A DNA stretch of 64,000 nucleotides, from the NCBI GenBank assembly GCA_965214605.1, contig OZ243961.1, positions 1,248,001 through 1,312,000 of the forward strand, written 5' to 3'. A program made the position numbers and the translations under genes. Below are positions 6,854 to 36,658 of the stretch, in pieces. Every line of letters starts with the position of its first letter. The first letter of the stretch is position 1. Under the pieces are notes generated by a model. The model saw only the letters and a list, made by a program, of their open reading frames with translations, was not told where the DNA came from and ran no database searches. This DNA comes from an uncultured Candidatus Binatia bacterium (GTDB lineage: Bacteria; Desulfobacterota; Binatia; Bin18).

Positions 6854-7782
6854 GAACACCCTACTCTACGGGTTCTGTCGAACAACGGGGGAGCAGTCAT
6901 GAGTCGTATGATCGCGGGCACAGTCATCCTCATGGTATGGGCTCTCGCCTCCCCGGCTCACCCGCAGCCGTCCGGGCAAGCCTCCGTCACCGACGGCGAT
7001 ACGCTTGAGATCGCCGGCGAACGTGTCCGACTACACGGCATCGACGCGCCGGAGCGAGAGCAGCCCTGCCACGCGGACGGGCGGCCGTGGCAGTGCGGGC
7101 AGGCCGCAACGCAGGCACTCCAGAGACGCATCGGCGGCCAAGCCGTCACCTGCACGCCGCGTGATCGCGACCGCTACGGGCGGGTCGTCGCCGTATGCGA
7201 AACAGCTGGAGGGAGCCTCAACGCCTGGCTGGTGGCGCAAGGCTGGGCGCTGGCCTACCGGCGGTACTCGACGGCCTACGTGGACGAGGAACGGGCGGCC
7301 AAGCGGGGGGTTTGGCGGGGGCAGCTCGTCCCGCCCTGGGAGTGGCGGCGCGGCAAGAGGCTGGCCGCGCCGGCGAGGGCTTCGGTCAAGGCGAACGGCG
7401 GGTGCCGCATCAAGGGCAACATCGGTCGCAACGGCAAGCGCATCTACCACATGCCCGGCGACAGGTACTATGAGCGCACGGTCATCAATAGCGCCACAGG
7501 CGAGCGGTGGTTCTGCTCCGAAGACGAAGCACAGGCGGCAGGATGGCGGCGGACCAAGCGCTGAACTCCGAGGAAAGGGCACCGTGCTGAAGAGCGCGTC
7601 CCTCGGTCGGCCGTCGCCGAGAAGCCGGAGGCTCCTCGGGCCGGACAGTGCCCCACCCGCAGGATCGGACAGCGCCACAGGGGAAGGAGGACGGACGCGC
7701 AGAGCGCAAAGGACGGGGGCGACAGTCCCCACACGAATGGTGAAGGAAGCCCCACGGGGGGACGAACACCCTACACTGCGGG
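6854..7782 (+). repeat. Imperfect 19-bp direct repeat pair (6854-6872 and 7764-7782) bracketing the thermonuclease gene
   Basis: GAACACCCTACTCTACGGG vs GAACACCCTACACTGCGGG, 17/19 identical. Confidence 0.6.
6899..7564 (+). CDS. Secreted thermonuclease (SNase) family protein with C-terminal IKGNI...YH.PG..YY...ERWFCSE domain
   Basis: Signal peptide; VTDGDTL, VRLHGIDAPE, DRYGRVVA, PPWEWR motifs. Confidence 0.9.
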   Translation: MSRMIAGTVILMVWALASPAHPQPSGQASVTDGDTLEIAGERVRLHGIDAPEREQPCHADGRPWQCGQAATQALQRRIGGQAVTCTPRDRDRYGRVVAVCETAGGSLNAWLVAQGWALAYRRYSTAYVDEERAAKRGVWRGQLVPPWEWRRGKRLAAPARASVKANGGCRIKGNIGRNGKRIYHMPGDRYYERTVINSATGERWFCSEDEAQAAGWRRTKR

Positions 7783-8513
7783 CATGGCGAGCCAGAGGAC
7801 GGAAGGGGTGACGGGACCCTGCGGATCCGGCAGGAATACTGGGCGGAGTGGGAACGGGCAGGAATGCAGGCAAAGCTGCCGGATTTCGTGCAGTTGCCCA
7901 GTCGTGCGGTTGGGCCGGCACCACTGGTTCACATCGAGGCGGACGGGGCCGAGGACGCCGTGAAGGGCTCCATCAAGGCGCTGCGGGGGCCTGGGGGATT
8001 GGACGGAGGGCCTGGGCGAGTTCAGCGCATTCCCATACGTCGAATACCGCCGAGGCGTTTGATGCTGTTGAAACTTCTCTCTCCCCTCCCACACTAGCCC
8101 CACCAAGTATCTCCAGTGTTCAGGGACCGGATTTTACCTTCTTTGTGTATTGGGACAACCGGCGTACTGGACAGTTCAGGCCGATGTATTTCTCCATATA
8201 GGAGAACGCTGAGGGTTTAGTGCTTCCGAGTCCCGGCCCGGTCTGAAGACTGCTTGATTTCCAGCAGCATCCATCTCTCGCGCCCACATAGCCCGAGACT
8301 CGCCCACGAGGGTCTGTGATTCTCGCTGCCGGCGAGTAGAGTCTCACTCAGGCAACATCGAGGTTGCCCAAGCGGGTTGGTCTGCTTCAGCAGTACTTTA
8401 TCGTTTTTTGGATGAGCTTCCCCATCTTCTTGCGGCTGTTGGTTTGGCTGGCTGCTAGGCATTTGCCTCTTTTGCCTACTGAGGTCTCACCGTACACGAT
8501 TCCTGCTCAAAAA

Positions 8514-8588
8514 CGCGCCCTGGAGGATTCGAACCTCCGACCTACAGATTCGTAGTCTGCCGCTCTATCCGGACTGAGCTAAGGGCGC
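8514..8588 (-). tRNA. tRNA-Arg(ACG)
   Basis: Minus strand GCGCCCTTAGCTCAGTCCGGATAGAGC GGCAGACT-ACG-AATCTGT AGGTCGGAGGTTCGAATCCTCCAGGGCGCG folds as a cloverleaf; CCA not encoded. Confidence 0.95.
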
Positions 8589-8767
8589 ATATACGGGGTG
8601 GGAGTAAAGATATCACGAATCGGAGCAAAAACGCTTGCTCGGGACGTGCTTTAAGCCCTCTCTCTGTATCATACACATATAATATTAACAAGCGCGGAGA
8701 GAAACGACCGCCCTGACTTGCAATCCAATCTTGCCACCACGCCGTGCGGTCACACGGCTCTGCGGGA

Positions 8768-8855
<88 letters not shown>

Positions 8856-8936
8856 ACAGCGTTGAGTTCGGGTTTGGCTTACAGGAATCCTACCGTTTTT
8901 GCCGGAACTGCGCAACGACTTTTTTCGTCTCAGGCC

Positions 8937-8972
8937 TTGACAAGTGAAATTGAAAATGATTTTCAATTTCAC
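8937..8972 (+). promoter_or_regulatory. TTGACA -35-like hexamer followed by a perfect 14-1-14 Fur-box-like palindrome
   Basis: TTGACA 8937-8942; GTGAAATTGAAAAT-G-ATTTTCAATTTCAC 8944-8972, ending 2 nt before the ATG of the Com-like gene. Confidence 0.85.
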
Positions 8973-8974
8973 CC

Positions 8975-9184
8975 ATGAGTATCCAAGATACATCTCCCCT
9001 CTCGGTCCATGTCCAAGAGAGCCGCTGCCGCTGTGGGAACCTGTTAGCACGACTGCGTCCAAACGGCGTAGAACTCAAATGTCGACGCTGTAAACGAATT
9101 GTGCTCATTCCATGGACTGCGGCCTCCCTGTGGCATGACAGGGCATTTGAGTGGCAGCAAACACAACAGGAAGGAGAGAACTGA
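8975..9184 (+). CDS. Mu Com-like Cys4 zinc/iron-ribbon mini-protein (putative RNA-binding regulator)
   Basis: RCRCGNLLARL...VELKCRRCKRI matches the Com pattern RCxxC(G/N)KLL...IEI(K/R)CxRC; first gene behind a Fur-like box. Confidence 0.75.
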   Translation: MSIQDTSPLSVHVQESRCRCGNLLARLRPNGVELKCRRCKRIVLIPWTAASLWHDRAFEWQQTQQEGEN

Positions 9185-9210
9185 ACCTAGTACACTGATG
9201 GAAACGATTC

Positions 9211-9271
9211 AGCATGCGAGAGGCCAGCGGTCCCACACCCAGAGCCCTGTTATGATTCACCTCATATACGG
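9211..9271 (+). promoter_or_regulatory. Conserved leader element copy A (GAGGCCAGCGGTC..ACACCCAGAGCCC) with a weak hairpin next to the porin RBS
   Basis: 9220-9247 is 26/28 identical to 13977-14004; followed by a TATGA/TCATA stem with no U-tract. Confidence 0.75.
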
Positions 9272-9287
9272 AAGAAGGAGAGTTAAC

Positions 9288-10676
9288 ATGGCACGAAGGT
9301 TGGCTGTCGCCCTAGCAATAATACTCGGCGGCATAATAGGGGCTCCTCAGAAGGTCGAGGCGGTCGATAGCGCTCGCATCCAACAGCTTGAACAGCAAAT
9401 GAGAGCGATGCAACAAGAATTGACGGCTCTTAAAGCCGAGCAAAAAGAGGAACAGGAAGAGGCAGATCGGCGCACCAATTTGCTGGCCGAGGAGTTTGAA
9501 AACCTCCGTACTCAGCTGACGATCCCCGAGGAGATTGAGCTCAAGAGTATGTATGGTTTGGGGCCCGCCGCCTCAAAAATCTATCAAATTGAGCGCGGGG
9601 TCTCAATCGGGGGCTATGGGGAAGCATTCTACCGCAAAGACGTCGGCGATAAAACATCAAGCGATATTGATACGGCAGATTTTCTACGTTTTGTCTTATA
9701 CACTGGCTACAAATTCAGCGATTGGCTTCTATTGAACGCAGAGTTGGAATTTGAACACGCCTCAACCAGCACAGGGGGCTCGGTCTCCGTCGAATTTGCC
9801 TATCTGGACTTCCTGCTCTCGGAGAAGCTCAATGTCCCGCTGAATGTCCGCATGGGAATGCTGCTGGTTCCTCTGGGGATTGTGAACGAGTTACACGAGC
9901 CGGTCTTCTTTAACGGGGTTGAGCGGCCAGAGCTGGAGCGCCGAATTATTCCTACGACCTGGCGGGAGAACGGCATTGGTATCTGGGGCGAGCTCCTTCC
10001 GGGGTTGGAGTACCGCCTCTATGCGGTCAACGGTCTGGACGGGGAAGACTTTAAGGACAACGGCTTTCGGAGTGGACGACAAAAGGGAGGCGAGGTTCGG
10101 GCCGAAGATATTGCCATAGCCGCGCGATTTGATTACCGCCTAGGACTAGGTGTGACCTTGGGAGCCTCGGTCTATCACGGCAATTCCGGCCAGGGCCGGG
10201 AGTTCACCATTCCCGACCCCACAGCGCCGGGGGGGGAGCGCCAAGACAAGCTGGACCTCAGCACCACGATTTGGGAGATACACGGCCTGTACAACCGGGC
10301 TGGACTGGAAATGCGCGGGCTGTTTGCCATGTCGTATCTGGGCGATGCCGCGGCGCTGTCGCGGGCCAAAAACAGGAATGTAGCTCAGAACATGTTGGGA
10401 GGTTATTTCGAGCTGGCCTACAACGTGCTGCCCTGGATCTTGCCGGGTACGGAAATGGCGCTGGCACCATTTCTGCGCTTCTCCTATCTGGATCTACAAC
10501 ACAAGATGCCGGCAGGCTTCAGTGCCATGGGCAATCGTACCTACCGCATCTGGACTCCAGGTCTGTCGTTTAAGCCACATCCACAAGTTATCCTGAAAGT
10601 AGACTATCGCAATTTCAACCCGCGACAGGGTCGCCGGGCTCAAGAGGTGAATTTTGGTGTGGGGTTTGTGTTCTAG
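9288..10676 (+). CDS. Outer-membrane porin (OprO/OprP-like) with N-terminal coiled coil
   Basis: RBS AAGGAG; signal peptide; coiled coil; IGGYGE, RFVLYTGYKF, ELEFEHA, NELHEP, IIPTTWRE motifs; C-terminal GVGFVF. Confidence 0.85.
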   Translation: MARRLAVALAIILGGIIGAPQKVEAVDSARIQQLEQQMRAMQQELTALKAEQKEEQEEADRRTNLLAEEFENLRTQLTIPEEIELKSMYGLGPAASKIYQIERGVSIGGYGEAFYRKDVGDKTSSDIDTADFLRFVLYTGYKFSDWLLLNAELEFEHASTSTGGSVSVEFAYLDFLLSEKLNVPLNVRMGMLLVPLGIVNELHEPVFFNGVERPELERRIIPTTWRENGIGIWGELLPGLEYRLYAVNGLDGEDFKDNGFRSGRQKGGEVRAEDIAIAARFDYRLGLGVTLGASVYHGNSGQGREFTIPDPTAPGGERQDKLDLSTTIWEIHGLYNRAGLEMRGLFAMSYLGDAAALSRAKNRNVAQNMLGGYFELAYNVLPWILPGTEMALAPFLRFSYLDLQHKMPAGFSAMGNRTYRIWTPGLSFKPHPQVILKVDYRNFNPRQGRRAQEVNFGVGFVF

Positions 10677-11235
10677 CGTAGTCGGGCTGCTCGTGGGCGG
10701 GCTGGTGCTCGCCGCCCCCGCCCCCGCAGCGGCCACCGTCTTGTATGCCAAACGGGAAGCCCTGGCCGTGGCGTTTCCCGAGGCGGAGGTGGTCGAGCCG
10801 CAGAGTTTTTTTCTGACGGACGCCCAACGCGCGCGCGTCCAAACCCTGGCCCACGCCCCGCTGGCGGCCAAGGTGGTGACCTTCTACGTCGGCCGCGCCG
10901 GAGAGCGGGTGCTGGGCTATGGGTTTATCGAGACCCTGATCGTGCGCACCCTGCCGGCGACCTTTCTGATTGTGGTCTCGCCGGCCGGGCAGGTGGCGCG
11001 GATCCTGACCCTGGCCTTCTATGAGCCGCTGGAGTACCGGCCGGCCCCGGGGTGGCTGGCGCAGTTTGGGGGGCGGGGGCTGCCGGCCGAGCTGCAGCGG
11101 CCCTGGGCGATTCACGGGATTGCGGGGGCGACACTGACGGCGCGGGGGGTCACGCGGGGGGTGCGCAAAGTGTTGGCGCTCTTTGAGGTGGTGCTCGGCC
11201 GGCCGGAGGGTGGGGAGCGCGCATGCGGTTTGTGA
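10654..11235 (+). CDS. Periplasmic FMN-binding (flavinylation-substrate) protein
   Basis: Signal peptide, LAFYEPLEY.P..WL.QF.G, IHGIAGATLTARGV (variant [ST]GA[ST] motif); linked to ApbE; start uncertain. Confidence 0.8.
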   Translation: MVWGLCSSVVGLLVGGLVLAAPAPAAATVLYAKREALAVAFPEAEVVEPQSFFLTDAQRARVQTLAHAPLAAKVVTFYVGRAGERVLGYGFIETLIVRTLPATFLIVVSPAGQVARILTLAFYEPLEYRPAPGWLAQFGGRGLPAELQRPWAIHGIAGATLTARGVTRGVRKVLALFEVVLGRPEGGERACGL

Positions 11236-11795
11236 TCACGGGCGAGTGGTCCCACAATCGGCTCCTGCAACTGATCATCGTGCTGTTCGTGGTGTATGTG
11301 GCGGGGCTGTGGCTGACCAACGCGTTGCTGTATTTCCAGAAGATGAGTCTGAGCTACAGTTCGGTGACGGCGTACTACCTGGGGGCGGAGGAGCGGTTCC
11401 TGCTGCCGCGGACGTATCAGGGGATGCTGGAGGTGACGCACTTTCACCTGTTTGCGATGGGGTTGTTACTGCTGACGCTGACCCATCTGATGCTGTTCGT
11501 GCCGCTGGGGCCGCGGCTGAAGGCGGGGTGTATTGTGATTCCGTTTGGGGCGGCGCTGGTGGACGAGGGGAGTGGGTGGCTGGTGCGGTTTGTGCATCCG
11601 GGGTTTGCGTATCTGAAGATTGGGGGGTTTGTGCTGTTGGAGGTGAGTTTGGCGGCGTTGATAGGGCTGACCTTATGGACGGTGGTCGGGGGCTCGCAGC
11701 GGCAGTACCGCCGGGCGGGGGCGCCCCGGCCCCCGACGCCCGGGGCGGGGGCGTCCAGGCTTGCAGAGGGCCAAGGAGAAGACCCCCGAAGCTAG
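11223..11795 (+). CDS. Four-TM membrane protein with conserved His (possible cytochrome-b-like partner of the FMN-binding protein)
   Basis: Hydrophobic helices, LEVTHFHLFAM and LTHL His motifs; overlaps the upstream gene. Confidence 0.65.
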   Translation: MRFVITGEWSHNRLLQLIIVLFVVYVAGLWLTNALLYFQKMSLSYSSVTAYYLGAEERFLLPRTYQGMLEVTHFHLFAMGLLLLTLTHLMLFVPLGPRLKAGCIVIPFGAALVDEGSGWLVRFVHPGFAYLKIGGFVLLEVSLAALIGLTLWTVVGGSQRQYRRAGAPRPPTPGAGASRLAEGQGEDPRS

Positions 11796-11799
11796 GACG

Positions 11800-12792
11800 A
11801 TGCTACGCTTGGTTATCTATGTCATGGGCTGTCTGCTCCTACTGAACCTGCCAAGTCCGGCCGCGCCCCTCTCATGTCTGAGCGATGGCCGCTATGTCAT
11901 GGGCACCGTCTTGGAGCTAACGCTGTGTGGAACCGATGCCGCCCATAATCGCCGCACCAGTGAGAGCCTGTTTCACACCGCAGTTCGTCTGGATAGGCTG
12001 CTGACAACCTATGCGCCCAACAGTCCGGTCAGCCGTCTCAACGCTACGGCTGGCCAAGGCCCTATGCCGGTTCCTGCCGAGGTCATGGACGCGCTGTCGG
12101 TGTCTATTCGTTACTGGGAACTGACCGGAGGTACGTTTGATATCACTGTTGGTCCGCTGATAGCGTTATGGGAAAATGCACCTCATCTGCCCTCCCCCGA
12201 AACGGTGCAGCAGACCCTCTCCCGGATAGGCAGCCATAAAATTGTCTTCTCTCCACAGGGCATGGTTGGCCTGGCTCACAAAGACATGACGCTCGACCTC
12301 GGAGGCATCGGCAAGGGCTTCGCCCTTGATCGTATGGTCAAGTTGCTCAAGGAGCAGCAGGTGACGCGCGCTCTGCTCGATTTTGGCCAAAGCACCCAGT
12401 GGGCCTTGGGAACACCGCCCAACGCAGAAGGCTGGCGACTGCTAGTACGCCTCCCGGACGGCACAAACGCAGGGGTTATCACCTTACAAAATCAGGCACT
12501 TTCGGTTTCAGGCAGTCTGGGCCACAGCTTTACTGTTGAGGGTCAATACTATGGACATGTGATTGACCCCCGTACCGGACAGCCCATTCAGCGCGATCTA
12601 CTAGCCTGCGTTGTCGCCACCAGCGCAACCCAGGCCGAAGCCTTGAGCACGGCATTTTTAATTCTCGGTGAATCAGAAGGGATAGCGCTTCTAGAGCGTT
12701 TGTCGGACGTAGAAGGAATGTTACTTGAAGCAAACGGGCAACGGTGGGAAACCACGGGCTGGCGGCAAGCGGTCGCCTTTGTTCCGTTTTAA
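11800..12792 (+). CDS. apbE: FAD:protein FMN transferase
   Basis: VMGT, SPVSRLN, TGGTFDITVGPL, LDLGGIGKGFALD, YGHVIDPRTG. Confidence 0.93.
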   Translation: MLRLVIYVMGCLLLLNLPSPAAPLSCLSDGRYVMGTVLELTLCGTDAAHNRRTSESLFHTAVRLDRLLTTYAPNSPVSRLNATAGQGPMPVPAEVMDALSVSIRYWELTGGTFDITVGPLIALWENAPHLPSPETVQQTLSRIGSHKIVFSPQGMVGLAHKDMTLDLGGIGKGFALDRMVKLLKEQQVTRALLDFGQSTQWALGTPPNAEGWRLLVRLPDGTNAGVITLQNQALSVSGSLGHSFTVEGQYYGHVIDPRTGQPIQRDLLACVVATSATQAEALSTAFLILGESEGIALLERLSDVEGMLLEANGQRWETTGWRQAVAFVPF

Positions 12793-12820
12793 GCGAAGTA
12801 TACGCGCGAAGGAGAAAAGC

Positions 12821-13132
12821 ATGTCAGACGGACAATTGCTAGGCACAGTTGAGACGGATGATGGGCATAGCCGTCTAGAGGTCGTCCTCAGCCCGAATGA
12901 TAAGGGGAAATCAGCGCTCGAACTACGTCGTCTGTCTTGGGGTAGAGGCGTAGGCTGGTATCGGCAGCATACACTCCGTCTTGATCCAACAGAAGCTGAG
13001 GTGCTGCTGCACACCTTGCGCACCAGCCGCCGTACCTGGCGCGAAGTCCGTCAAGCGCCTAGCGGTAATAAGGTCATCCCCTTTCCGACTGGGCAACACA
13101 AGCAGGAAGGACAACAGCGTCAGCTTGTATGA
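12821..13132 (+). CDS. Hypothetical protein (LELRRLSWGRGVGWYRQ; possible PC4/YdbC-like fold)
   Basis: RBS AAGGAG before ATG 12821; beta-strand then helix pattern; fold is a guess. Confidence 0.6.
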   Translation: MSDGQLLGTVETDDGHSRLEVVLSPNDKGKSALELRRLSWGRGVGWYRQHTLRLDPTEAEVLLHTLRTSRRTWREVRQAPSGNKVIPFPTGQHKQEGQQRQLV

Positions 13133-13165
13133 GGTTGGGTCGAGAACCGGGTCCGCAGGCGCAAA

Positions 13166-13197
13166 AACGGATGGTCTATTTTTCTGAGCCATCCGTT
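13166..13197. terminator. Hairpin between convergent genes
   Basis: AACGGATGG / CCATCCGTT inverted repeat. Confidence 0.5.
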
Positions 13198-13232
13198 CAA
13201 ACGGCACGGCCCGAGGCGTGCATATCTAGCGC

Positions 13233-13694
13233 TTAGCTCACCCGCTGCAGATTAATTTCGCGCTCAAGTCCGCTTGTTTGTACCATGCCGAGATACATTT
13301 CCAGCCCTTCGATGTCTTCCTGTTCAGCCTCAATCTGGTTCTCCAGCATGACGCGCAGTGGAAGATTATCCTCGGCCAGCTCATGGGCCTCCATGTATGC
13401 TTGCAGAGCGGCCCGTTCGAGGTCCAGATCTTGGTTCAGCATCTCTTCGAGATCAATCGACTGGCGAATTGGCGCTCCCAACTCAACCGTCGGGATACCG
13501 CCCAGCACGACGATCTTTTGGCCAAATTTATGGGCATGCTCAAGAGCATTCTCACTCTGGTCGCTGAGGAAGCCCTCGTATTCCTTCCGCCACAACCCTC
13601 TCACCAACAGAGCGTGTTGTTTGTATTGCATGACCGCAGTATGTTCAAGAGCAACGGCTCTGTTAAGCGCCTCAATCACCTTTTGGGTATCCAT
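13233..13694 (-). CDS. Bacterioferritin/ferritin-like protein
   Basis: LNRAVALEHTAVMQY..H, EHAHK..KIVVLGGIP, DLDLERAA...Y, EAEQED ferroxidase-type residues; RBS AAAGGAG. Confidence 0.88.
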   Translation of the reverse strand: MDTQKVIEALNRAVALEHTAVMQYKQHALLVRGLWRKEYEGFLSDQSENALEHAHKFGQKIVVLGGIPTVELGAPIRQSIDLEEMLNQDLDLERAALQAYMEAHELAEDNLPLRVMLENQIEAEQEDIEGLEMYLGMVQTSGLEREINLQRVS

Positions 13695-13805
13695 TATGAA
13701 CTCCTTTCCGTGGAAGACATACAAAACGCTGTATAAATTTAAAATAAGAGTTTCGAGCCGTAATGTCAAGGCAACTTCTTTTCTAAGTTACTAATTTTAT
13801 TGAAT

Positions 13806-13909
13806 AAAATGATTTTGAAAATCATTTTCGATTAGAAGGAAAAGCGATTTTGAAAATCATTTTCGATTAGAGTACCTATTTTTGAACTGATATTGAAAAC
13901 CATTTTCAT
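13806..13909. promoter_or_regulatory. Array of Fur-box-like sites in the divergent ferritin / imelysin promoter, including an exact 26-bp direct repeat
   Basis: GATTTTGAAAATCATTTTCGATTAGA at 13811-13836 and 13846-13871, plus ATTGAAAACCATTTTCAT near 13892. Confidence 0.8.
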
Positions 13910-13963
13910 CTAGAACCAGGAAGGAGAAAAACATGGTGTCATAATCCGTAGCTACCGCAACCA

Positions 13964-14036
13964 GAGCTGAGCATTCGAGGCCAGCGGTCATACACCCAGA
14001 GCCCGTGGAGATACCGTCTTCACGGGCTCTTTTTTT
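13964..14036 (+). terminator. Leader element copy B fused to an intrinsic terminator (attenuator)
   Basis: GAGCTGAGCATTCGAGGCCAGCGGTCATACACCC, then stem AGAGCCCGTGGAG / CTTCACGGGCTCT and a U-tract, upstream of the first ORF of the operon. Confidence 0.8.
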
Positions 14037-14070
14037 GCCGTTTATCTTCTTAAGGGAGGAGGAAAAACAG

Positions 14071-14286
14071 ATGGAAAAGATTCAGGACAACGATACCGTC
14101 CTTTTTGTGAACCACCGTGGGCTTTCTACCCGGATCTGTCCACGCGGCAGTGTGGCCTTATGCATTGGTCATACGTGTGTCTCCCTACGCAAAACGGATT
14201 TTCTCGATCTTGCAGAAGTTATTACCGCCACTCAACAACATCTGCTCAAACATCGGAGCTTTGAGCACGATCAGACAAAGCATTGA
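14071..14286 (+). CDS. Small hypothetical protein (CPxG family, paralog of 18323..18526)
   Basis: Strong RBS GGAGGAGG; ICPRGSVALCIGHTCVSLRKTDFLDLAEVI. Confidence 0.7.
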   Translation: MEKIQDNDTVLFVNHRGLSTRICPRGSVALCIGHTCVSLRKTDFLDLAEVITATQQHLLKHRSFEHDQTKH

Positions 14287-14381
14287 GTCAGCCACAAGGG
14301 ATTCCCCCTCCACACCTGGCAGAGTTGGAGAAACGCTTGGGAACATATGGCTGGGGGGAAAGTCATAACCAGGAGATTAGT

Positions 14382-16016
14382 ATGAAAAAGGCAATCGTTT
14401 TTGGAGCACTATTTATCTCACTTTTCTTTACCTCTCTTCCCACGTTGGCAACAATTCGGGTCAACCTAGAAAACCCCGGCAATGGGACGAGCGTAAACGG
14501 AGTCACTGCTATTTCCGGCTGGGCCTTCAGCGATACACCAGGGACCGCGGTCAGCGTGTGGTTACGCCTCAACGGCAAAACCACTACTACCCAAATTCCC
14601 TGCTGTGGGTCGCGTTCTGATGTGCAGAACGCCTATTCAGCCGCCCCGCTCAACAGCAGCTTCGGCCTCCTGTGGAACTATGGAGACTTACCCTCAGGTG
14701 TCCACACCATAGGCGTCGAGGTCAGAGCCGAGGGTGAGAAGACAATGACGGTGGACAGCAGTGTCACTGTGGTCCGGCCAGCGGATGCTGCGTTTCTCAG
14801 TGCGCTGTCAATCGAAGATGCTACCGTCACAATAGACGACGACACGATCGTCATTACCGGAGCCGAAGCCACTCCCAACGTGGACCAAGCCATGTCAGTA
14901 AGCACAACACTGACCCTGGCCTATAGCACGGCCGCTCAGGCGTTCAGTATTATTCTCGCACAGGATGATCGTGGTCAGGCGCAGTCCCCCTACGATGCGT
15001 CGCCACTGCTGACTGATGTAGCCGAGGCTATTTTTGACACCTATAACGAACTGCATGAGCGGGCAGAGGATGTCCAGTCAGCCGTAATTAGCACCTTGAT
15101 GGCCGGAGACCGAGCCAGGATTATTGAGGGTCTGTCCAACGTCCATAGCGCCTGGCGGAATGCCCGTGTCCCTTGGGAACAGAGCGAAGCTTTTCTGTTT
15201 GGGCCAGTCAGTGATGACGAGCACGACCCCGCGCTGGACTCCTGGCCGCTTAATACGATCGACCTGGAAAACATCATCGCTTCCGACCGAGACATTGCCA
15301 GTCTGACTTTTGCAGATGACGTCAAAGGTTTCCACGCCCTGGAATACCTTCTGTTCCGTGACCAGGCCGGCAACACGGATCCAGCGTCGATTGTGACCTC
15401 TCTACTCAACGCAGACAGCCGTACTCCGTCCCGTAGACAGAGCTATGTACTGGCGGTGCTGACCGCATTGCTTAGCAACACCGAAACGCTCCGCGACGCT
15501 TGGGACCCTGAAGAGGGGAATTTTGTGTACCAGCTGGCTATGGCTGGCAAAGGCAGTACAGCCTACACCAGCCAAAAAGCCGCAGTACAAGAACTGGTCA
15601 ACGGTATGATCGGTATTGCCGATGAGGTGGCCAACGCCAAATTAGCTGTCCCGCTTAATGACCGCAGTACCGCAGAAGAAGAATCTCGCTTCAGCAATAA
15701 TTCCAGGCGTGACTTTATCGACAATCTGCGCAGTATCAACAACATCTATGAGGGCCGCTTTGACCAGACTGACAGCACCCCAATGGGTGTGACGGACTTT
15801 GTCACCAACCAAGACCCCGAACTGGACGGCCAGGTCCGGGCCGCGCTGCGAGATGCCATGGCGGCGGTCATCGCCATCCCTGAGCCCTTTGGCCAGAGCA
15901 TTATGGATGACGATGCCCGCACGACTGTCCAGGCAGCTGTGACTGCAGTACAGAACTTGCACGAGACCCTCGCAGCCATCCTCCCTGTTGTCGAGGCGGC
16001 TCGTTTTACCTCCTGA
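14382..16016 (+). CDS. Imelysin-like (peptidase M75/IrpA) iron-binding protein with extra N-terminal Ig-like domain
   Basis: Signal peptide; AWRNARVPWEQSEAFLFGP, LDSWP, KGFHALEYLLF (GxHxxE), EEESRFSNNS. Confidence 0.88.
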   Translation: MKKAIVFGALFISLFFTSLPTLATIRVNLENPGNGTSVNGVTAISGWAFSDTPGTAVSVWLRLNGKTTTTQIPCCGSRSDVQNAYSAAPLNSSFGLLWNYGDLPSGVHTIGVEVRAEGEKTMTVDSSVTVVRPADAAFLSALSIEDATVTIDDDTIVITGAEATPNVDQAMSVSTTLTLAYSTAAQAFSIILAQDDRGQAQSPYDASPLLTDVAEAIFDTYNELHERAEDVQSAVISTLMAGDRARIIEGLSNVHSAWRNARVPWEQSEAFLFGPVSDDEHDPALDSWPLNTIDLENIIASDRDIASLTFADDVKGFHALEYLLFRDQAGNTDPASIVTSLLNADSRTPSRRQSYVLAVLTALLSNTETLRDAWDPEEGNFVYQLAMAGKGSTAYTSQKAAVQELVNGMIGIADEVANAKLAVPLNDRSTAEEESRFSNNSRRDFIDNLRSINNIYEGRFDQTDSTPMGVTDFVTNQDPELDGQVRAALRDAMAAVIAIPEPFGQSIMDDDARTTVQAAVTAVQNLHETLAAILPVVEAARFTS

Positions 16017-16121
16017 GCAGGTCTGGCACTCCTGTTATGACTGGATAGAGGAGAAACTACCCTGAGTGACTCATCACGGACAAAACATGCTCTCCTTCCA
16101 GCTAAGCCTCTTCAGTCGAAA

Positions 16122-18008
16122 GTGAGAAGAGCCATGTCAGTATGGTATCGTGCATGTATCTTAGGTGTTTTGTTGCTGTGGCCGGCGGTCAGTCCGGCCA
16201 CCATCACTGCCGTCCTAGAGAACCCTGGCCAGAGTAACAGTGTGTCAGGGCTGACAGTCATTTCCGGCTGGGCTTTCTCAGATAGTGGCGCGCCCATTAC
16301 GGTGGAGCTTCGTATCAATGGTGAGTCCGTCAGTCCTGTCCCATGCTGTAGTCCGCGCCAGGATGTGAGGGACACCATTCCTGGCGCACCGCTGAAGACC
16401 GGCTTTGGGCTGCTGTTCCATTATGGCCTGCTCGAAGCGGGCGTTCACACAATTGGGGTGGAGGTCAAGGCAGCAGTGGACGAACCGGTCATCACAGAAC
16501 ATATAGTAAGGGTGGTGAAGCCAGGCGGGGCTGAGTTCATTGAGGAGCTTGATCTTAGCCAGGCAAGCGCCGCCATTGAAGGTAATGAACTCCTAGTGTC
16601 CAGGGTACGGACGCGCTCCAGTCGCGGCACGAGCAGCGTTGATCTGCGCGTAGGCTACAGCCTGAGTACTCAATCTCCCATTATCTTGGCCGCCCCCGAC
16701 AGCCTTCCAATCGGCACTCACAGCACAGCCCTATCAGGAGGAGAGACCACTATTTTTGACGCCACCAGCCAGGCGTTTGAAATGCCGGCACCCAACCTGA
16801 CCGGGACGCGTCTAGAGAAACATCTTGAGGGCGACGCCACCTTTGGAAACACATTTGTGACAGCCCCTGCTCCAGTCTTCAGCGGCTTAGGTCCGATCTT
16901 CAACAATAATGGTTGCGTCAGCTGTCATCCGAAAAACGGCCGGGGTCGCCCGCCGCGAGAGGATGAGCAGCTGGAGTCCATGTTTCTGCGGGTCAGCATC
17001 CCAGGTGTCGATGCCGTGACCCTCGGCCCCCTCCCCGTCCCAGGTATGGGAACGCAGCTGCAACATCGAGCCGTCTTTGGCATTCCACCAGAGGCAGACG
17101 TGACCATGACTCAAACTGAGCATCTTGAGACCTTTGCCGATGGCGAGAGCATTCGGCTGCGGACCCTGCATTTTGCTATTGAGGATGCTGCTGTACCTCT
17201 CCCCGCCCAAGTCCTGACTTCGCCGCGCACAGCCCTGCCCGTGTTTGGACGCGGCCTGCTGGAAGCTATTAACCAAGAGACCATCCTAGCCTTAGCCGAT
17301 GAGTTTGACGCCGATGGAGACGGAATTTCTGGTCGGCCTAATATGGTCTGGGACACCATTGCCGGGGCAACTCGGCTGGGCCGCTTTGGCTGGAAAGCCA
17401 ATAATCCAAGCCTGTTCCAGCAGACCTTTAGCGCCTATCAGCAAGACATCGGCATTACCAATCCGGTCTTGCCGACTGAAAGCGCCGCCGACCAGCTCCA
17501 GGCTGACGGGCTGCCGGACGACCCTGAGATAGATACGGAAACCCTGGAGGTAACGACCTTTTACGTTCAAACGCTTGCCGTTCCAGCCCGGCGCCGGATG
17601 CATGACCCGCGAGTGCGAAGAGGCGAGGAGTTATTTAGCGCTGCCGGCTGCGCGGCCTGCCATACCCCGACGCTGAGAACAGGAGTTTTAGTCGGGGTGC
17701 CGGAGGTATCACATCAAACGATTCACCCCTATACCGACATGCTACTCCACGACATGGGTGAAGGATTAGCCGACAACCGGCCCGACTTTCTGGCTACAGG
17801 CCGGGAATGGCGGACACCACCATTGTGGGGCATTGGCCTCGCCCTGCGTGTCCAGGGCCATACCTTGTTCCTGCACGATGGGCGAGCCCGTAATCTCATA
17901 GAAGCGATCATGTGGCACGGTGGGGAAGCGGTTCAGGCCCGCGAGGCCGTACGTGCGATGGTTAGAGAAGACCGAGAAGCGCTCATCGCTTTTTTGGAGT
18001 CGCTGTAA
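16122..18008 (+). CDS. Di-heme oxidoreductase (DHOR/COG3488) with the same N-terminal Ig-like domain
   Basis: GLGPIFN..GCVSCH and GCAACH heme motifs, DADGDGISGRPN, GRFGWKA, WRTPPLWGIG, LHDGRAR. Confidence 0.9.
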   Translation: MRRAMSVWYRACILGVLLLWPAVSPATITAVLENPGQSNSVSGLTVISGWAFSDSGAPITVELRINGESVSPVPCCSPRQDVRDTIPGAPLKTGFGLLFHYGLLEAGVHTIGVEVKAAVDEPVITEHIVRVVKPGGAEFIEELDLSQASAAIEGNELLVSRVRTRSSRGTSSVDLRVGYSLSTQSPIILAAPDSLPIGTHSTALSGGETTIFDATSQAFEMPAPNLTGTRLEKHLEGDATFGNTFVTAPAPVFSGLGPIFNNNGCVSCHPKNGRGRPPREDEQLESMFLRVSIPGVDAVTLGPLPVPGMGTQLQHRAVFGIPPEADVTMTQTEHLETFADGESIRLRTLHFAIEDAAVPLPAQVLTSPRTALPVFGRGLLEAINQETILALADEFDADGDGISGRPNMVWDTIAGATRLGRFGWKANNPSLFQQTFSAYQQDIGITNPVLPTESAADQLQADGLPDDPEIDTETLEVTTFYVQTLAVPARRRMHDPRVRRGEELFSAAGCAACHTPTLRTGVLVGVPEVSHQTIHPYTDMLLHDMGEGLADNRPDFLATGREWRTPPLWGIGLALRVQGHTLFLHDGRARNLIEAIMWHGGEAVQAREAVRAMVREDREALIAFLESL

Positions 18009-18074
18009 GCTGCTCTTGGTCTGGTCTTGCCAAACAAGAAGAAGTGGTGTATAGAATAGCTTCAATCGATAATT

Positions 18075-18143
18075 GAGCTGAGCGGCCCGCAGCGATACAG
18101 TTCAGAGCCCGCCATGAAGAAGTGTTCCTGGCGGGCTTTTTTT
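18075..18143 (+). terminator. Leader element copy C fused to an intrinsic terminator (attenuator)
   Basis: GAGCTGAGCGGCCCGCAGCGATACAGTTCAGAGCCC, then stem GAGCCCGCCA / TGGCGGGCTT and a U-tract; TTGCCA..TATAGAAT promoter-like sequence just upstream (18027-18057). Confidence 0.7.
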
Positions 18144-18322
18144 GTGTGCGGGCAACGACAAGAAAACGGCAATGAAGAAACAGGGGGGACCGGCATCCCG
18201 TCCAGGAGTCACGGCAGTCCGCTCAGAACTGAGAGGAAGTTTTATGAAGCGGACATTCGATTGTGCCCACTCCCCCCTACTGGTGCCTGAGAGCAGCTCA
18301 TTACACAGATAAAGAGGAGCAT

Positions 18323-18526
18323 ATGAACAGCACAGGTTTTTGGCACACGAGAGAACACCAGATCAGCATCTCACAGTGCCCGGAAGGCTGTATTCATCTC
18401 GTGGTCGGACGGGCAATCATCAAAATGACGCGAGAAGAATTTCTGGTCCTAGCCAAGCTAACCAATACTGCCAACCGGGAGATATCCCTGGCAGAGCCAC
18501 GGCTGGTGTCTAAACTCGGGCACTGA
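18323..18526 (+). CDS. Small hypothetical protein (CPxG family, paralog of 14071..14286)
   Basis: RBS GAGGAG; SQCPEGCIHLVVGRAIIKMTREEFLVLAKL. Confidence 0.72.
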   Translation: MNSTGFWHTREHQISISQCPEGCIHLVVGRAIIKMTREEFLVLAKLTNTANREISLAEPRLVSKLGH

Positions 18527-18879
18527 CTCCTACTCACAGCTCTCCCCTGTCAGAAGGGGGAGAAAGGGAAAGTCGGGATGTCCTCAAAGAGATGTTGCCA
18601 GCGCTGGTGGATGGGCTGCCAGCGTCAGATGTCCCGCTTTCCCTGTTCTCTTCCGCTGTACACAAGGACAGCAAAACATGTCAGATCGGGGAAGATACTG
18701 GTCCACACTTGGCGTCATCCTCTTGTGAGGATGTGTCCTGCGGTCGGCCGCTGCCCCCGATTTTTCGGTTTCGGTCCAGGATGGGATAGGCCGTCATATC
18801 AGCCTAGCTCAACCAGCCGAACGCGTTATCGCTCTGAGCCAAGGCAGCCTGGATATTGTCCAAACCCTGGGCGGTCGGC

Positions 18880-19440
18880 TGGTCGAGCATCCGAACATAG
18901 GCGAGTGTGACACTGCCCGAGGAATTCCAGTCTTTGCCAGCGGTGAGCAACGCGGTGGTGCCGAATCTTGAGGCAGTTGTGGACGCTATCCAGATCTGCT
19001 TATTGCACCAACCCGGGCTTACGGCGGTGTCGCGCAACGCTTACAGATGGTGCAGACCGCACGATATCTGTGGCAAGCGTACAGCGTGACCGACGTCGTC
19101 CAGGTCAGTCATAACATTGGCACGCTGCCCGGTCGCCAAGATCAGGCTGCGGCCCTCAGCCAAGTTTCGTCCCAAAAGCTGGGCCGAGGTGAGAAGCGGC
19201 CTGCCCGGCAGTCCCCGCCCGACGATTTTGCTGTTCGGGACCACCCAAACCTTTCTGGTCATTGCTCCGTGGACGTATGCTGGCGACTTGTTGTACTTGG
19301 TCGAAGGAAAAAATCTGCCCGTCGACATTGCCTCCGGCTACCCGCACGATCCTGGCTATGAACTGCTCCCTCTCAGTCTTGAGAAACTACTCGTCACCAA
19401 ACCGAAAGTCATCTGGTCGGCCACGGCGATCCCAGACGGT
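18880..19440 (+). pseudogene. Frameshifted remnant of an iron-chelate/heme ABC substrate-binding protein (IsdE/BtuF-like)
   Basis: Fragments LPEEFQSLPAVSNAVVPNLEAVV and ILLFGTTQTFLV..PWTYAGDLL...GKN...PLSLEKLLVTKPKVI, with the intervening coding signal disrupted. Confidence 0.7.
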
Positions 19441-19513
19441 GAACGCTGCCCCCAACCAAGAACTCAACAGCCATCCAGCCCGGTAAGGACTCAGCGCCGT
19501 TCAACGTGCTCGG

Positions 19514-19700
19514 GTGATGGAAGATATAATCTGCCGGGGCAACAAGCCGGAGCAGACCCATAACCTGGAGTTGGGGGCAACATGGAGCCTACTGAACGAC
19601 AAACTACTACTGACAGCCGAGATCTTTAAGGACGACGTGATGGAAAACATGAAGAACGGGAGCCCCTCAGCACGCTCAACGCGAGCAAGAACCGGGTCAG
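19514..19700 (+). pseudogene. TonB-dependent receptor fragment
   Basis: KPEQTHNLELGATWSLLNDKLLLTAEIF resembles the LxPExxxNxElG barrel segment; no full gene present. Confidence 0.6.
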
Positions 19701-19827
19701 AGGGCTGGAGTTCTCTCTGGCAACACTTGCGACCGACCTCGGCGGACTGATGGTATTCTTGATGCTGGTGTTTTTCGTTTAGGATTGCCAGAACCAGAAA
19801 GTTTTTGCAGAAAATCCGGCTTCCCCC

Positions 19828-19891
19828 TTGACAGAACAAAGAAGCCCCACTAGTTTCCTTAAATTGAAATTGATTATCAATTTCAATTTAA
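19828..19891 (+). promoter_or_regulatory. Sigma70-like promoter followed by a perfect 16-1-16 Fur-like palindrome
   Basis: TTGACA-N17-TAGTTT (19828-19856); TTAAATTGAAATTGAT-T-ATCAATTTCAATTTAA 19859-19891. Confidence 0.85.
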
Positions 19892-20218
19892 TGTACGAGC
19901 GACCCTGAGCAAAACCGCCCAGCTACCGCTTCAGGAGTCACGGAAAGCAAAAATTACGGCCACCGGTCGTTAATCAGAACACCAGTGTGGTAGGAGAAAA
20001 TCGGTGCTCCTGCCATTTGCCCCGGGGTAGTCTCCCTCCTGATTGCCCCGGGGCATCCGTTTTATTGAACTTCTTGGCTAAAGTCCTGTGTTGTCGGGAC
20101 AGAGAAGCCGAGCACTACCCCTGTCTATCCCGACGCAGTCATTGTCAAGAAAGGGGAGTCGTCATCAGGATCACAATCCTAGTACCGATATATTTCTGAA
20201 CTGAAACGGTCCTCTGTA

Positions 20219-20242
20219 GTTGAATTTGAAAATCAATTTCAC
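20219..20242 (+). promoter_or_regulatory. Fur-like box directly upstream of feoA
   Basis: TGAATTTGAAAATCAATTTCA imperfect palindrome. Confidence 0.7.
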
Positions 20243-20254
20243 TACCATATGGGG

Positions 20255-20491
20255 ATGCAGAAAACCCTGGCAGAACTCGGCCCCTCAGAGCATGGAGAGA
20301 TCCACACCATTCATGGCACGGACGGCATATCACGCCGTCTGGCAGAACTCGGCTTCACCCCGGGCCAGACGGTCGAGGTTCTCCGTTTTGCCCCTTTGGG
20401 TGATCCCATGCAGATCCGTATCCGCGGCTATCAACTCGCCCTCCGTCGTCAAGAAGCGGCCCGCGTCCTGCTAGTCTCCTCCGGCATATAA
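20255..20491 (+). CDS. feoA: Ferrous iron transport protein A
   Basis: RRLAELGFTPG..VEVLRFAPLGDPMQIRIRGYQLALRR. Confidence 0.95.
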   Translation: MQKTLAELGPSEHGEIHTIHGTDGISRRLAELGFTPGQTVEVLRFAPLGDPMQIRIRGYQLALRRQEAARVLLVSSGI

Positions 20492-20505
20492 GAAAACACC
20501 ACGCT

Positions 20506-35332: not shown

Positions 35333-36658
35333 CTATCCTCTTTGACCTTTGATCGTATGACTTTGGACATGTCTTCCATCATACACGACCTGTCCGTTCA
35401 CCAATGTCAGCATTGCTCTGCCCTTCATGTCTTGGCCAACAAAAGGCGTGTTTGTACTTTTTGAGTGCAACCTGTCTGCGACAACGGTCCAAGACTGATT
35501 GGGATCAAAAACTACCACATCGGCGGGTGCGCCAACCGACAGGCTCCCGTAGGGCAAGTGGAAGATCCGGGCCGGATTCCAGCTCAGCTTCCGAACCGCC
35601 TCACTCAGAGACAGAACGCCAGCCTCGACCAGGCCCAAGGTTAGCGGCAGGGCTGTCTCTAAACCGACGACGCCGTGGGCCGCGCGTTCGAACGCACCAG
35701 CTTTGTCATTCCGATGATGGGGCGCATGATCGGTGGCAATGGCATCAAGCGTCCCATCGCGCAGGCCTTCTCGCATGGCTTCGACATCTGCGGCCTGCCG
35801 CAATGGCGGAGCCATCTTGGCGTTGGTCTGATATGCCTCTACAGCCTCTTCGGTCAGGCTGAAATGGTGTGGCGCAACCTCGGCGGTGACCGGCAGACCG
35901 TCTTTTTTGGCCTGACGAATGAGGTCGATCGAGCCACGGGCGCTGACGTGGGCCACATGGATATGCCCGCCGGTCAGGCGGGCAAGGGTCAAATCTCGGG
36001 CAATCATCACCTCTTCGGCCGCATTAGGGACCCCCTTACGTCCCAGACGGGCGGCAGTTGGCCCCTCGTTCATACTGCCTCCGGCAGACAGGGTGAGATC
36101 TTCCTCGTGGACGCTGATGGGAAGCTGTAAGTCCGCGCACCACTCAAGGGCCCGGCGCATCAGCTCGGCGTTCATCACCGGTCGGCCATCATCGGAGACC
36201 GCCACAATCCCGGCTTCGCGCATCTCACCGAGCGGGGCTAAGCTTTCGCCTTTGAGCCCGACCGACAGGGCTCCGATAGGCAACACCCGAGCCAGGTTTG
36301 CGGTCTGAGCTCTGTCGATAATAAAGCGAGTGACGGCACTATTATCGTTGACCGGATTGGTATTGGCCATGCAGGCGACCGTGGTAAACCCGCCCGCCAC
36401 TGCGGACTGGGCACCGGTCCGGACGGTTTCTTTGTACTCATAGCCCGGCTCACGAAAATGCACGTGGAGGTCGATAAAACCAGGCGCAACAACCCACCCC
36501 CGGGCGTCCACATCCAGAGCGTCCACACCGGACAGCTGAGCGACGCTCTCGGGCGACTCCACGCCTCGGATACGCCCATCCTCAATCACAAGGTCAGCTG
36601 GCGCATTCATATTGTTGGCCGGGTCAATCAGGATTCCGTTACGAACGACAACTCTCAT
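35333..36658 (-). CDS. pyrC: Dihydroorotase (type I)
   Basis: PGFIDLHVHFREPG, MANTNPVND, AEVAPHH, IATDHAPH. Confidence 0.95.
   Translation of the reverse strand: MRVVVRNGILIDPANNMNAPADLVIEDGRIRGVESPESVAQLSGVDALDVDARGWVVAPGFIDLHVHFREPGYEYKETVRTGAQSAVAGGFTTVACMANTNPVNDNSAVTRFIIDRAQTANLARVLPIGALSVGLKGESLAPLGEMREAGIVAVSDDGRPVMNAELMRRALEWCADLQLPISVHEEDLTLSAGGSMNEGPTAARLGRKGVPNAAEEVMIARDLTLARLTGGHIHVAHVSARGSIDLIRQAKKDGLPVTAEVAPHHFSLTEEAVEAYQTNAKMAPPLRQAADVEAMREGLRDGTLDAIATDHAPHHRNDKAGAFERAAHGVVGLETALPLTLGLVEAGVLSLSEAVRKLSWNPARIFHLPYGSLSVGAPADVVVFDPNQSWTVVADRLHSKSTNTPFVGQDMKGRAMLTLVNGQVVYDGRHVQSHTIKGQRG

Follow-up and report, generated by a model that had tools for sequence, protein, structure and literature searches.

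A Com-like zinc-ribbon gene behind a Fur-type operator and a conserved leader hairpin: a candidate post-transcriptional switch in the iron locus of a Binatia bacterium

A 64,000-nucleotide (nt) stretch of the genome of an uncultured Candidatus Binatia bacterium (contig OZ243961.1; hereafter the window) encodes a 69-amino acid (aa) Com-like protein, a Cys4 zinc ribbon similar to the Com protein of phage Mu, and carries three copies (A, B and C) of an RNA hairpin of about 28 nt in the leaders of neighbouring transcription units. The genome comprises 4.37 Mb with 58% G+C, and the gene content of the window identifies it as an iron-acquisition locus. The hairpin is very probably a cis-acting leader RNA that competes with an intrinsic terminator or with a stem that hides the Shine-Dalgarno (SD) sequence, and the Com-like protein is probably its activating ligand, a reading that draws on homology, gene layout and co-occurrence. 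The anatomy of the locus, the conservation and covariation of the hairpin, its mutually exclusive pairings, the similarity to Mu Com and the co-occurrence of gene and RNA were observed directly.

The original prediction for this locus described a non-palindromic element that recurs on the sense strand of three leaders, with copy B identical to copy A at 26 of 28 positions. This reads as stated, as A and B differ by two substitutions and all three copies lie in leaders in the sense orientation. A whole-genome fuzzy search that allowed up to 6 or 8 substitutions returned no copies beyond A, B and C, and two covariance models (R1 and R2) gave exactly three matches, whether applied to the window or to the whole genome, each on the + strand. 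Two further R2 matches, in a conserved coding region of Sorangium (E about 0.02), were taken as chance. A cmscan search with Rfam 15 of window positions 7000-22000 (E ≤ 1) returned tRNAs and chance rows only, and no known riboswitch family.

The element consists of an outer stem, P1 (GGC/GCC), a conserved internal loop and an inner stem, P2 (GGU/ACC in copy A). Relatives hold copies at syntenic sites, and 20 sequences could be aligned as GGCC(A/C)GC(G/A)G-loop-…C(A)GAGCCC; pairing in this structure reaches 99.2%, and two of the three P2 pairs vary in a compensatory manner (UA, CG and UG; GC, AU and GU). A broader set of 53 distinct rows, drawn from 80 loci of other genomes, is 99.7% paired, with five of six pairs altered on both sides (17 cells), including GAC/GUC in P1. 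This second alignment was fitted to the covariance model and therefore leans towards the structure; its covariation was reached by none of 500 shuffles, and slid registers were 4-65% paired. An independent RNAalifold run on nine porin leaders recovered the hairpin as the sole consensus structure and added the pairs C12-G30 and G14-C28, with the variable positions 13, 15, 29 and 31 bulged or mismatched. The element amounts to about 10 stacked positions and a variable loop of 4-8 nt, with invariant bases in the internal loop. The GAGGCC/GAGCCC boxes of the original prediction survive as a conserved motif, refined here to the two strands of one covarying hairpin. In the minimum free energy (MFE) fold of copy C (18060-18104), the element's CAGUUC can form a stem with a GAGCUG that lies upstream, a third pairing that is absent from A and B. 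The 5' part of the element has three exact 17-nt matches spaced at a 270-bp period in the genome of one relative (G006:C2:666692-667248), perhaps a repeat array of a different sort.

A census of 64 distinct instances (model R1, E ≤ 0.02) revealed two settings for the hairpin. In 33 of these it is followed by a hairpin and T-run whose 5' arm starts in the 3' half of the element, and in 28 a start codon lies within 50 nt downstream, one of them (L117) with a terminator recognised by eye. The remaining three are unclear, as one is cut at a contig end and two lie 5' of a second Com-like paralogue. Leaders B and C belong to the terminator type: the folded stretches have MFEs of -36.5 and -32.3 kcal/mol (z -4.4 and -3.2), and in both the terminator 5' arm begins with the conserved AGAGCCC, in agreement with the original prediction that the two stems differ beyond this arm but stay paired. 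A terminator scan listed the stem in B (13998-14030); the stem in C, which has an interior mismatch, was not listed. Across loci, inner stems and loops vary freely around constant outer AGAGCCC(G)/(C)GGGCUCU pairs. An SD sequence and start codon follow the terminator within approximately 5-70 nt in many loci, often 5-30 nt past the T-run, which leaves no room for another promoter, and the downstream gene would therefore depend on read-through.

Leader A represents the start-proximal type. Its GCC at 9244-9246 pairs with GGC just past the porin AUG to give a weak stem over the SD sequence (GGAG, 9277-9280) and the start codon (9288-9290), so the weak hairpin noted earlier beside the porin ribosome-binding site is present; the leader fold overall is no better than that of shuffled sequences (z +0.69). 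In 19 start-proximal leaders, the MFE structure pairs the 3' half of the element with the SD/AUG region, in Binatia as CCAGAGCCC…GGAG…UUCUGG and in Myxococcota as CCCGAGCCC…GGAGGC..CUCGG. Element variants track their pairing partner, with CCCGAG accompanied by CUCGG near the start codon and CCAGAG by UUCUGG. When the hairpin was forced, the unpaired probability of the region from SD to AUG rose in 16 of the 19 leaders, fell in two and was unchanged in one. Forcing the hairpin costs 1.3 to 14 kcal/mol, and the terminators are worth about -12 to -35 kcal/mol. The free hairpin is weaker than its competitors, so the default state would be OFF and a stabilising factor would be needed for ON. Copies of the element also lie 5' of a (second) Com-like gene at L082 (G025), L086 (G013) and L114:966-1002, an arrangement that would allow autoregulation.

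The Com-like open reading frame (ORF) is under purifying selection, with core differences of 61/17/197 by codon position across six orthologues. Its core, RCxCGNLLA….G.E.KCRRCKR, did not vary among the 30 members aligned, which come from several phyla, and neither did its four cysteines, whose CxC…CxxC spacing differs from the CxxC…CxxC of Mu Com. The family is large and occurs in at least five phyla, Binatia, Myxococcota, Methylomirabilota and Nitrospirota among them: a word-indexed search recovered 157 proteins at E ≤ 1e-3, an exhaustive search 1293 cluster representatives at the same threshold (717 at E ≤ 1e-10), and 276 Com-like stretches were confirmed among species genomes. Profile alignment of the family to Mu Com with hhalign gave a probability of 90.8% (E 1.2e-6, 31 columns) with a single gap, at the CxC/CxxC knuckle, and a pairwise BLASTP comparison of the two proteins gave E 2e-4. 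JGI gives the name "phage FluMu protein Com" to 20 among the 120 homologues listed, and the nearest clusters among protein language-model neighbours (Atlas) are named Com, with a PF10122 cluster at a score of 0.91. An AlphaFold2 (AF2) model features a three-stranded ribbon at residues 17-46, with a predicted local distance difference test (pLDDT) score of about 90, and tails of low confidence.

Other searches with the protein returned little. The Protein Data Bank (PDB) sequence search gave uS14 alone (E 0.013), tblastn against phage records gave a best E of 0.06, with gpCom of phage Chuche at E 2, and Pfam and NCBIfam scans of the Com-like ORF and of the small proteins sp1 and sp2 described below yielded Zn_ribbon_4 (E 0.04) and GFA (E 0.052), far below the cut-offs. 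A six-frame search of the genome with PF10122 (Zn_ribbon_Com) gave four weak rows elsewhere and none at the locus. From its sequence, the ORF resembles a zinc ribbon related to Mu Com that lies outside PF10122. Two stretches that match the profile occur in some longer members, of 100-127 aa (P0123, P0124, P0125, P0129, P0134 and others), which have the look of tandem double ribbons.

Gene and hairpin occur together across genomes. Of 41 relatives, 24 have the gene and 19 the RNA, with 18 relatives carrying both, and the sole relative with the RNA alone is a genome that is 84% complete and split into 1250 contigs. The original prediction had called for a covariance model and a test of co-occurrence with Com-like genes, and the two did co-occur in 18 of the 19 RNA-positive relatives and recurred as a pair in several phyla. 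A sample of 151 genomes of the phylum contained the gene in six and the RNA in three, all three with the gene; the hairpin, searched here with stricter Infernal filters, was found in 0 of the 145 gene-less genomes.

We also inspected 80 Com-like loci from Binatia, Myxococcota, Methylomirabilota, Nitrospirota, Chloroflexi and Thermodesulfobacteriota, which gave an RNA match at E < 0.01 in 45 and at E ≤ 1 in 54. The matches share the strand of the Com-like gene in 59 of 60 cases, and most lie either 0-140 nt past its stop codon or approximately 1.05 kb downstream, the latter class with ferritin-like and sp1-like genes between the Com-like gene and the element. Gene and RNA are not always neighbours: they lie on opposite strands with about 11 kb between them in Sorangium strains So ce26 and So ceGT47, the distance reaches 2.5 Mb in one Binatia genome, and in these unlinked cases each has its own Fur-type box. 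As co-occurrence persists when the two are unlinked, the pairing is more than adjacency. Three Nitrospirota loci (L060, L081 and L112) feature, in place of the full element, two tandem reduced hairpins (GAGGACC-loop-GAGUCCC) 3' of the Com-like gene that both R1 and R2 missed.

The promoter of the Com-like gene is overlapped by a perfect 14-1-14 palindrome (8944-8972) in which the central base alone is unpaired, and the coordinates given for it in the original prediction, directly before the 69-aa Cys4 ORF, hold. Its core, TTGAAAATGATTTTCAA, is one of seven matches in the window with up to three mismatches, compared with 0.04 expected from shuffled sequence, and these seven, within window positions 8950-20242, are part of a genome total of 19. 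The three best matches in the genome (up to one mismatch) lie at the Com-like gene and upstream of B; besides the palindrome, the boxes in the window begin at 13815, 13850 and 13893 (before B) and at 19864/19870 and 20226 (before FeoB). The genome encodes two Fur-family proteins, the palindrome likewise precedes Com-like homologues in other genomes, and relatives have a Fur box 10-15 nt ahead of the element. One expectation did not hold, as no Fur-like box (up to three mismatches) lies ahead of copy C in this genome; relatives carry one there. The AT-rich inverted repeats of 7-1-7 type over a promoter, their clustering at iron genes and the presence of Fur genes are all as expected of Fur operators, and we take the boxes to resemble the published Fur consensus. 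Operator position and conservation make Fur control of the Com-like gene likely. The start codon of this gene lies 3 nt past the palindrome and has no SD sequence, which, with the spacing from TTGACA, indicates that the mRNA is probably leaderless. The N-terminal extensions of some homologues (MKLKMIFNF and MTNEIENDFQF) correspond to the Fur box read as protein and are miscalled starts.

We propose that the Com-like protein and the approximately 28-nt leader hairpin would form a two-part post-transcriptional regulator under Fur, in which a Fur-type operator would cover the promoter of the Com-like gene. The putative target units in this genome are the porin with its flavin genes and the small proteins with the imelysin and di-haem oxidoreductase, whereas the units of other taxa carry genes for ExbB, cupredoxin, multicopper oxidase or CCP-like proteins. 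The 3' strand of the hairpin (…CAGAGCCC) also serves as the 5' arm of a far more stable terminator or of a stem covering the SD sequence and start codon, and a strand shared with a stabler structure would set the default to OFF. At low iron, Fur would leave its sites and the Com-like protein would be made, which could then bind the hairpin and stabilise it during transcription of the leader. This would keep the terminator or anti-SD stem from forming at its base, permitting read-through in leaders B and C or translation of the porin in leader A. Because leader B has Fur boxes of its own, Fur would repress both the activator and its target, which would constitute a coherent feed-forward loop. 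Fur binding, binding of the protein to the RNA and the direction of the effect are what we infer in this scheme. Compared with Com-type activators, its novelty would lie in being cellular, subordinate to Fur, directed at several targets and capable of antitermination. A wider proposal, a cellular Com-type regulon in which the zinc ribbon acts as a dedicated antiterminator and translational activator of iron uptake and its Cys4 site itself reports metal through Fe/Zn occupancy or oxidation, is unlikely.

Several observations weigh against this scheme. PF10122 gave no row for the ORF even at E ≤ 10, its first knuckle is CxC, unlike the CxxC of Mu Com, and a Foldseek search of BFVD and PDB with the 69-aa model gave nothing at E ≤ 0.001, the matches being generic zinc ribbons. 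The relation to Com foreseen in the original prediction is supported by the hhalign result and the Com-named neighbours. Six of the 24 relatives with the gene lack the RNA with model R1, one of which gained an adjacent match with R2. Among the 80 loci, 26 had no match at E ≤ 1; about 10 of these have variants recognisable by eye and 16 have none in the 220 nt examined. Co-occurrence is also partly co-inheritance, because the genomes are non-independent kin that mostly share one syntenic iron locus. The effect of forcing the hairpin was modest, with a mean unpaired probability that moved from approximately 0.35 to 0.47 and that was obtained without a shuffled control. Finally, one small RNA with two expression platforms is a signature of riboswitches too.

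A riboswitch, in which the hairpin would bind a ligand or metal ion and switch the same platforms and the Com-like gene would be no more than a neighbour under common regulation, would account for one conserved RNA with two kinds of platform (33 terminator-type and 28 start-proximal instances of 64), for the invariant internal-loop bases and for a position in leaders of metal-uptake genes. Two platforms are a feature of protein-dependent leaders as well, however, and a hairpin of about 10 stacked positions and a 4-8-nt loop has little room for a pocket. No Rfam family was matched, the RNA is missing from all 145 gene-less genomes of the phylum sample and keeps company with the Com-like gene even when unlinked, and without assistance the hairpin falls far short of the competing stems in stability, all of which make this explanation distinctly unlikely. 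It is more improbable still that the RNA is bound by another protein of the locus, either the sp1/sp2 family or a housekeeping factor. Genes of the sp1/sp2 family are very often 3' of the element and are present in 14 of the 19 RNA-positive relatives, yet they are absent from five RNA-positive genomes, including G011 and G039, which are 99-100% complete, and present in three RNA-negative ones; the Com-like gene is absent from just one RNA-positive relative. The sp1/sp2 proteins also have no nucleic-acid-binding similarity and are encoded downstream of the switch, as a target would be.

Copies B and C might instead be stand-alone genes whose products, Fur-regulated small RNAs (sRNAs), stop at the terminators and work through base pairing, A being a cis copy; RyhB and PrrF would be the functional analogues. 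At B, Fur boxes, a short transcript and a strong terminator do follow in that order, relatives have the Fur box immediately ahead of the element at the distance given above, and attenuated transcripts would be expected as RNAs of roughly 60-90 nt. This is very improbable given the SD sequence and start codon close behind the terminator in many loci, the 28 of 64 instances that have no terminator, and conserved bases that are paired with covariation and do not form an open seed, but a terminated leader may have a side role as an sRNA or decoy. Least credible, and close to negligible, is an element that works as DNA, either a transcription-factor site or a repeat. A short conserved sequence near promoters would suit such a site, but there are three copies per genome, strand polarity is strict (59 of 60), pairing is kept through G-U and compensatory changes while the loop length varies, and the element lies inside the transcript, downstream of the Fur-box promoters. 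Scatter in the manner of repetitive extragenic palindromic (REP) sequences or miniature inverted-repeat transposable elements (MITEs), which would have spoken against the original prediction, was rejected on the basis of three copies in 4.37 Mb, all sense and all in leaders.

The activating role proposed for the Com-like protein matches that of Mu Com, an activator of mom translation. A 2019 study (PMC6483171) reported that Mu Com recognises CC(N)2-3GAG within the loop of a hairpin whose closing pair is C-G, with GA crucial, and that systematic evolution of ligands by exponential enrichment (SELEX) gave the motif NGAGNNCC(N)2-3GAGNNCCNN. In the Mu record AF083977, com (35768-35956) overlaps the start of mom, and the stem with the mom GUG is directly preceded on its 5' side by the site, …GCCUGCGAGC…. 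Both proteins are small Cys4 zinc ribbons of the form RC..C..LL…(I/V)E(I/L)(K/R)C.RCKR, the order of gene, site, inhibitory stem and target is common to com-mom and to the locus described here, and both RNA sites are small CC…GAG hairpins, closed by C-G, at or over a stem that hides the SD sequence or start codon. The present element carries GAG(G)CC…GAGCCC, in which C11-C12…G30-A31-G32 provides the nearly invariant C-C…G-A-G and C11-G32 closes P1. Some Nitrospirota variants shrink to GGACC-AUA-GAGUCC, and it is suggestive that the element could be a Mu-type loop with an inserted P2 arm, which some Nitrospirota variants would do without. Unlike in Mu, the Com-like gene is chromosomal, outside a prophage and behind a Fur-type operator, its hairpin is larger (P2 and the internal loop), one gene is associated with several leaders in trans, and the presumed targets are iron-uptake genes in place of a DNA-modification gene. 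In roughly half of the instances the hairpin competes with a transcription terminator, and we know of no Com protein that controls a terminator.

Host-encoded Com-like genes of the PF10122 family precede genes for the bacteriocin LlpA (llpA), tailocin cargo and levansucrase in Pseudomonas, where their role "remains to be explored", according to the accessible part of the source (PMC6240691). They share with the gene described here the position of a mini-gene directly 5' of a presumed target, often unannotated, and differ in being true members of PF10122; the same part of the source describes no RNA site, iron link or mechanism for them.

The proposed antitermination logic has a counterpart in the RNA-binding proteins BglG, SacY and LicT, which stabilise a leader hairpin, the ribonucleic antiterminator (RAT), that overlaps the 5' arm of a terminator, so that binding gives read-through. 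The logic would be the same as here, whereas those proteins use CAT and PRD domains, a sugar phosphotransferase system (PTS) phosphorylation signal and another RNA, compared with a 30-residue zinc ribbon. Post-transcriptional iron control by a small hairpin is also the principle of the iron regulatory protein (IRP) and iron-responsive element (IRE) of animals, and of IRE-like binding by aconitase in some bacteria, where a low-iron protein acts on a bulged hairpin in the untranslated regions of iron genes. Neither protein nor RNA is homologous, and the IRP responds through a cluster switch, whereas here the signal would lie in how much protein Fur allows to be made, unless the Cys4 site is itself a metal sensor. 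A second layer below the iron repressor is likewise provided by RyhB and PrrF, which act by base pairing with Hfq, and by rhizobial HmuP/HemP (HmuP is a small iron-regulated co-activator of uptake genes, acting on transcription initiation); the Rfam and Pfam scans found no sequence relation to either. No description of a Fur-linked Com-like gene or of the element RNA was found in Rfam 15 or in the literature within reach, subscription journals and supplements lying outside it.

The features of the locus are collected in Table 1.

Table 1. Positions of the genes, operators and RNA features of the iron locus within the window
Feature	Position	Strand	Remark
tRNA-Arg(ACG) and tRNA-Ser(GCU)	8513-8589 and 8768-8855	-	directly 5' of the Com-like promoter
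TTGACA and Fur-type palindrome	8937-8972	+	promoter-like TTGACA (8937-8942), seen by eye, overlapped by the 29-nt palindrome (8944-8972)
Com-like Cys4 zinc-ribbon gene, 69 aa	8975-9184	+	single copy in the genome
Element A	model match 9214-9250, core 9220-9247	+	36 nt past the Com-like stop codon, in the porin leader
Weak inhibitory stem, leader A	9244-9292	+	GCC of element A and next bases against SD/start
Porin	9288-10676	+	first gene behind element A
Weak FMN-bind domain protein	10654-11235	+	porin unit
Gene without assigned product	11223-11795	+	porin unit
ApbE flavin transferase	11761-12792	+	porin unit
Gene without assigned product	12725-13132	+	porin unit
Ferritin-like gene	13233-13769	-	divergent from unit B
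Three Fur-type boxes	13815-13831, 13850-13866, 13893-13909	+	5' of element B
Element B	model match 13971-14007, core 13977-14004	+	
Intrinsic terminator, leader B	13998-14037	+	15-bp stem (13998-14030) and T-run; 3' half of element B forms the 5' arm
sp1, 71 aa	14071-14286	+	first ORF past leader B; without a Pfam family
Imelysin-like protein	ORF listed from 14283, likely start 14382, end 16016	+	
Di-haem oxidoreductase	16122-18008	+	
Promoter-like TTGCCA-17-TATAGA	18027-18055	+	ahead of element C, seen by eye
Element C	model match 18076-18113, core 18075-18110	+	variant: CCGC in loop, P2 AGC/GUU
Intrinsic terminator, leader C	18105-18145	+	stem (18105-18138) and T-run; 5' arm starts inside element C
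sp2, 67 aa	18323-18526	+	paralogue of sp1
Further Fur-type boxes	19864-19886, 20226-20242	+	ahead of FeoB
FeoB	20506-22665	+	same iron locus, without an element copy

The AF2 model of the porin features a signal peptide, an N-terminal coiled coil and a beta-barrel, at moderate confidence (pLDDT 61), and Foldseek matched it to porins of the OmpC, OmpF and OprP type (E about 1e-10). Porin orthologues sit 3' of the element in other phyla too. The porin unit continues with the FMN-bind-domain protein and ApbE (window 10654-12792), and because it holds these two genes its content suggests an extracytoplasmic flavoprotein, possibly a ferric reductase, in the uptake route. Ahead of B and C, the promoter scan listed no sigma-70-type site on the + strand under its rules.

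The sp1/sp2 family comprises proteins of approximately 70 aa with a conserved C…G…L and an end that is often H or Q, and no Pfam or NCBIfam family was matched by sp1 or sp2. Members are present in 17 of the 41 relatives and are very often encoded by the first ORF past a terminator-type element (for example at L054, L055, L056, L069, L085, L099, L107, L111 and L114). A second family, of approximately 94 aa and starting with MFRDPF or M(L/A)DPWI, is found directly behind the element in many Binatia and delta-type genomes; its members occur at L062-L077, L055, L079 and L103 (e.g. L069:4329-4610) and have no Pfam match.

Iron control in bacteria is usually described in terms of Fur and base-pairing sRNAs. 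The locus described here suggests a third layer, in abundant and poorly studied soil and sediment phyla (Binatia, Myxococcota, Methylomirabilota and Nitrospirota), in which uptake operons would be licensed, by way of a common leader hairpin, by a very small RNA-binding protein that is itself under Fur control. If this is true, the Com fold would gain a function in cells and, with antitermination, a second way of acting, a family missing from Rfam would be added to the known RNAs, and unannotated mini-ORFs behind Fur boxes in these genomes would be explained. Such a pair would also give synthetic biology a portable protein-RNA switch of very small size. The proposal is directly testable in carriers that can be cultivated, namely Sorangium cellulosum strains, with Vulgatibacter incomptus among the homologues. 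Should the less probable metal-sensing regulon prove true as well, it would be a bacterial counterpart to IRP-IRE and the first control of transcription termination by the Com family.

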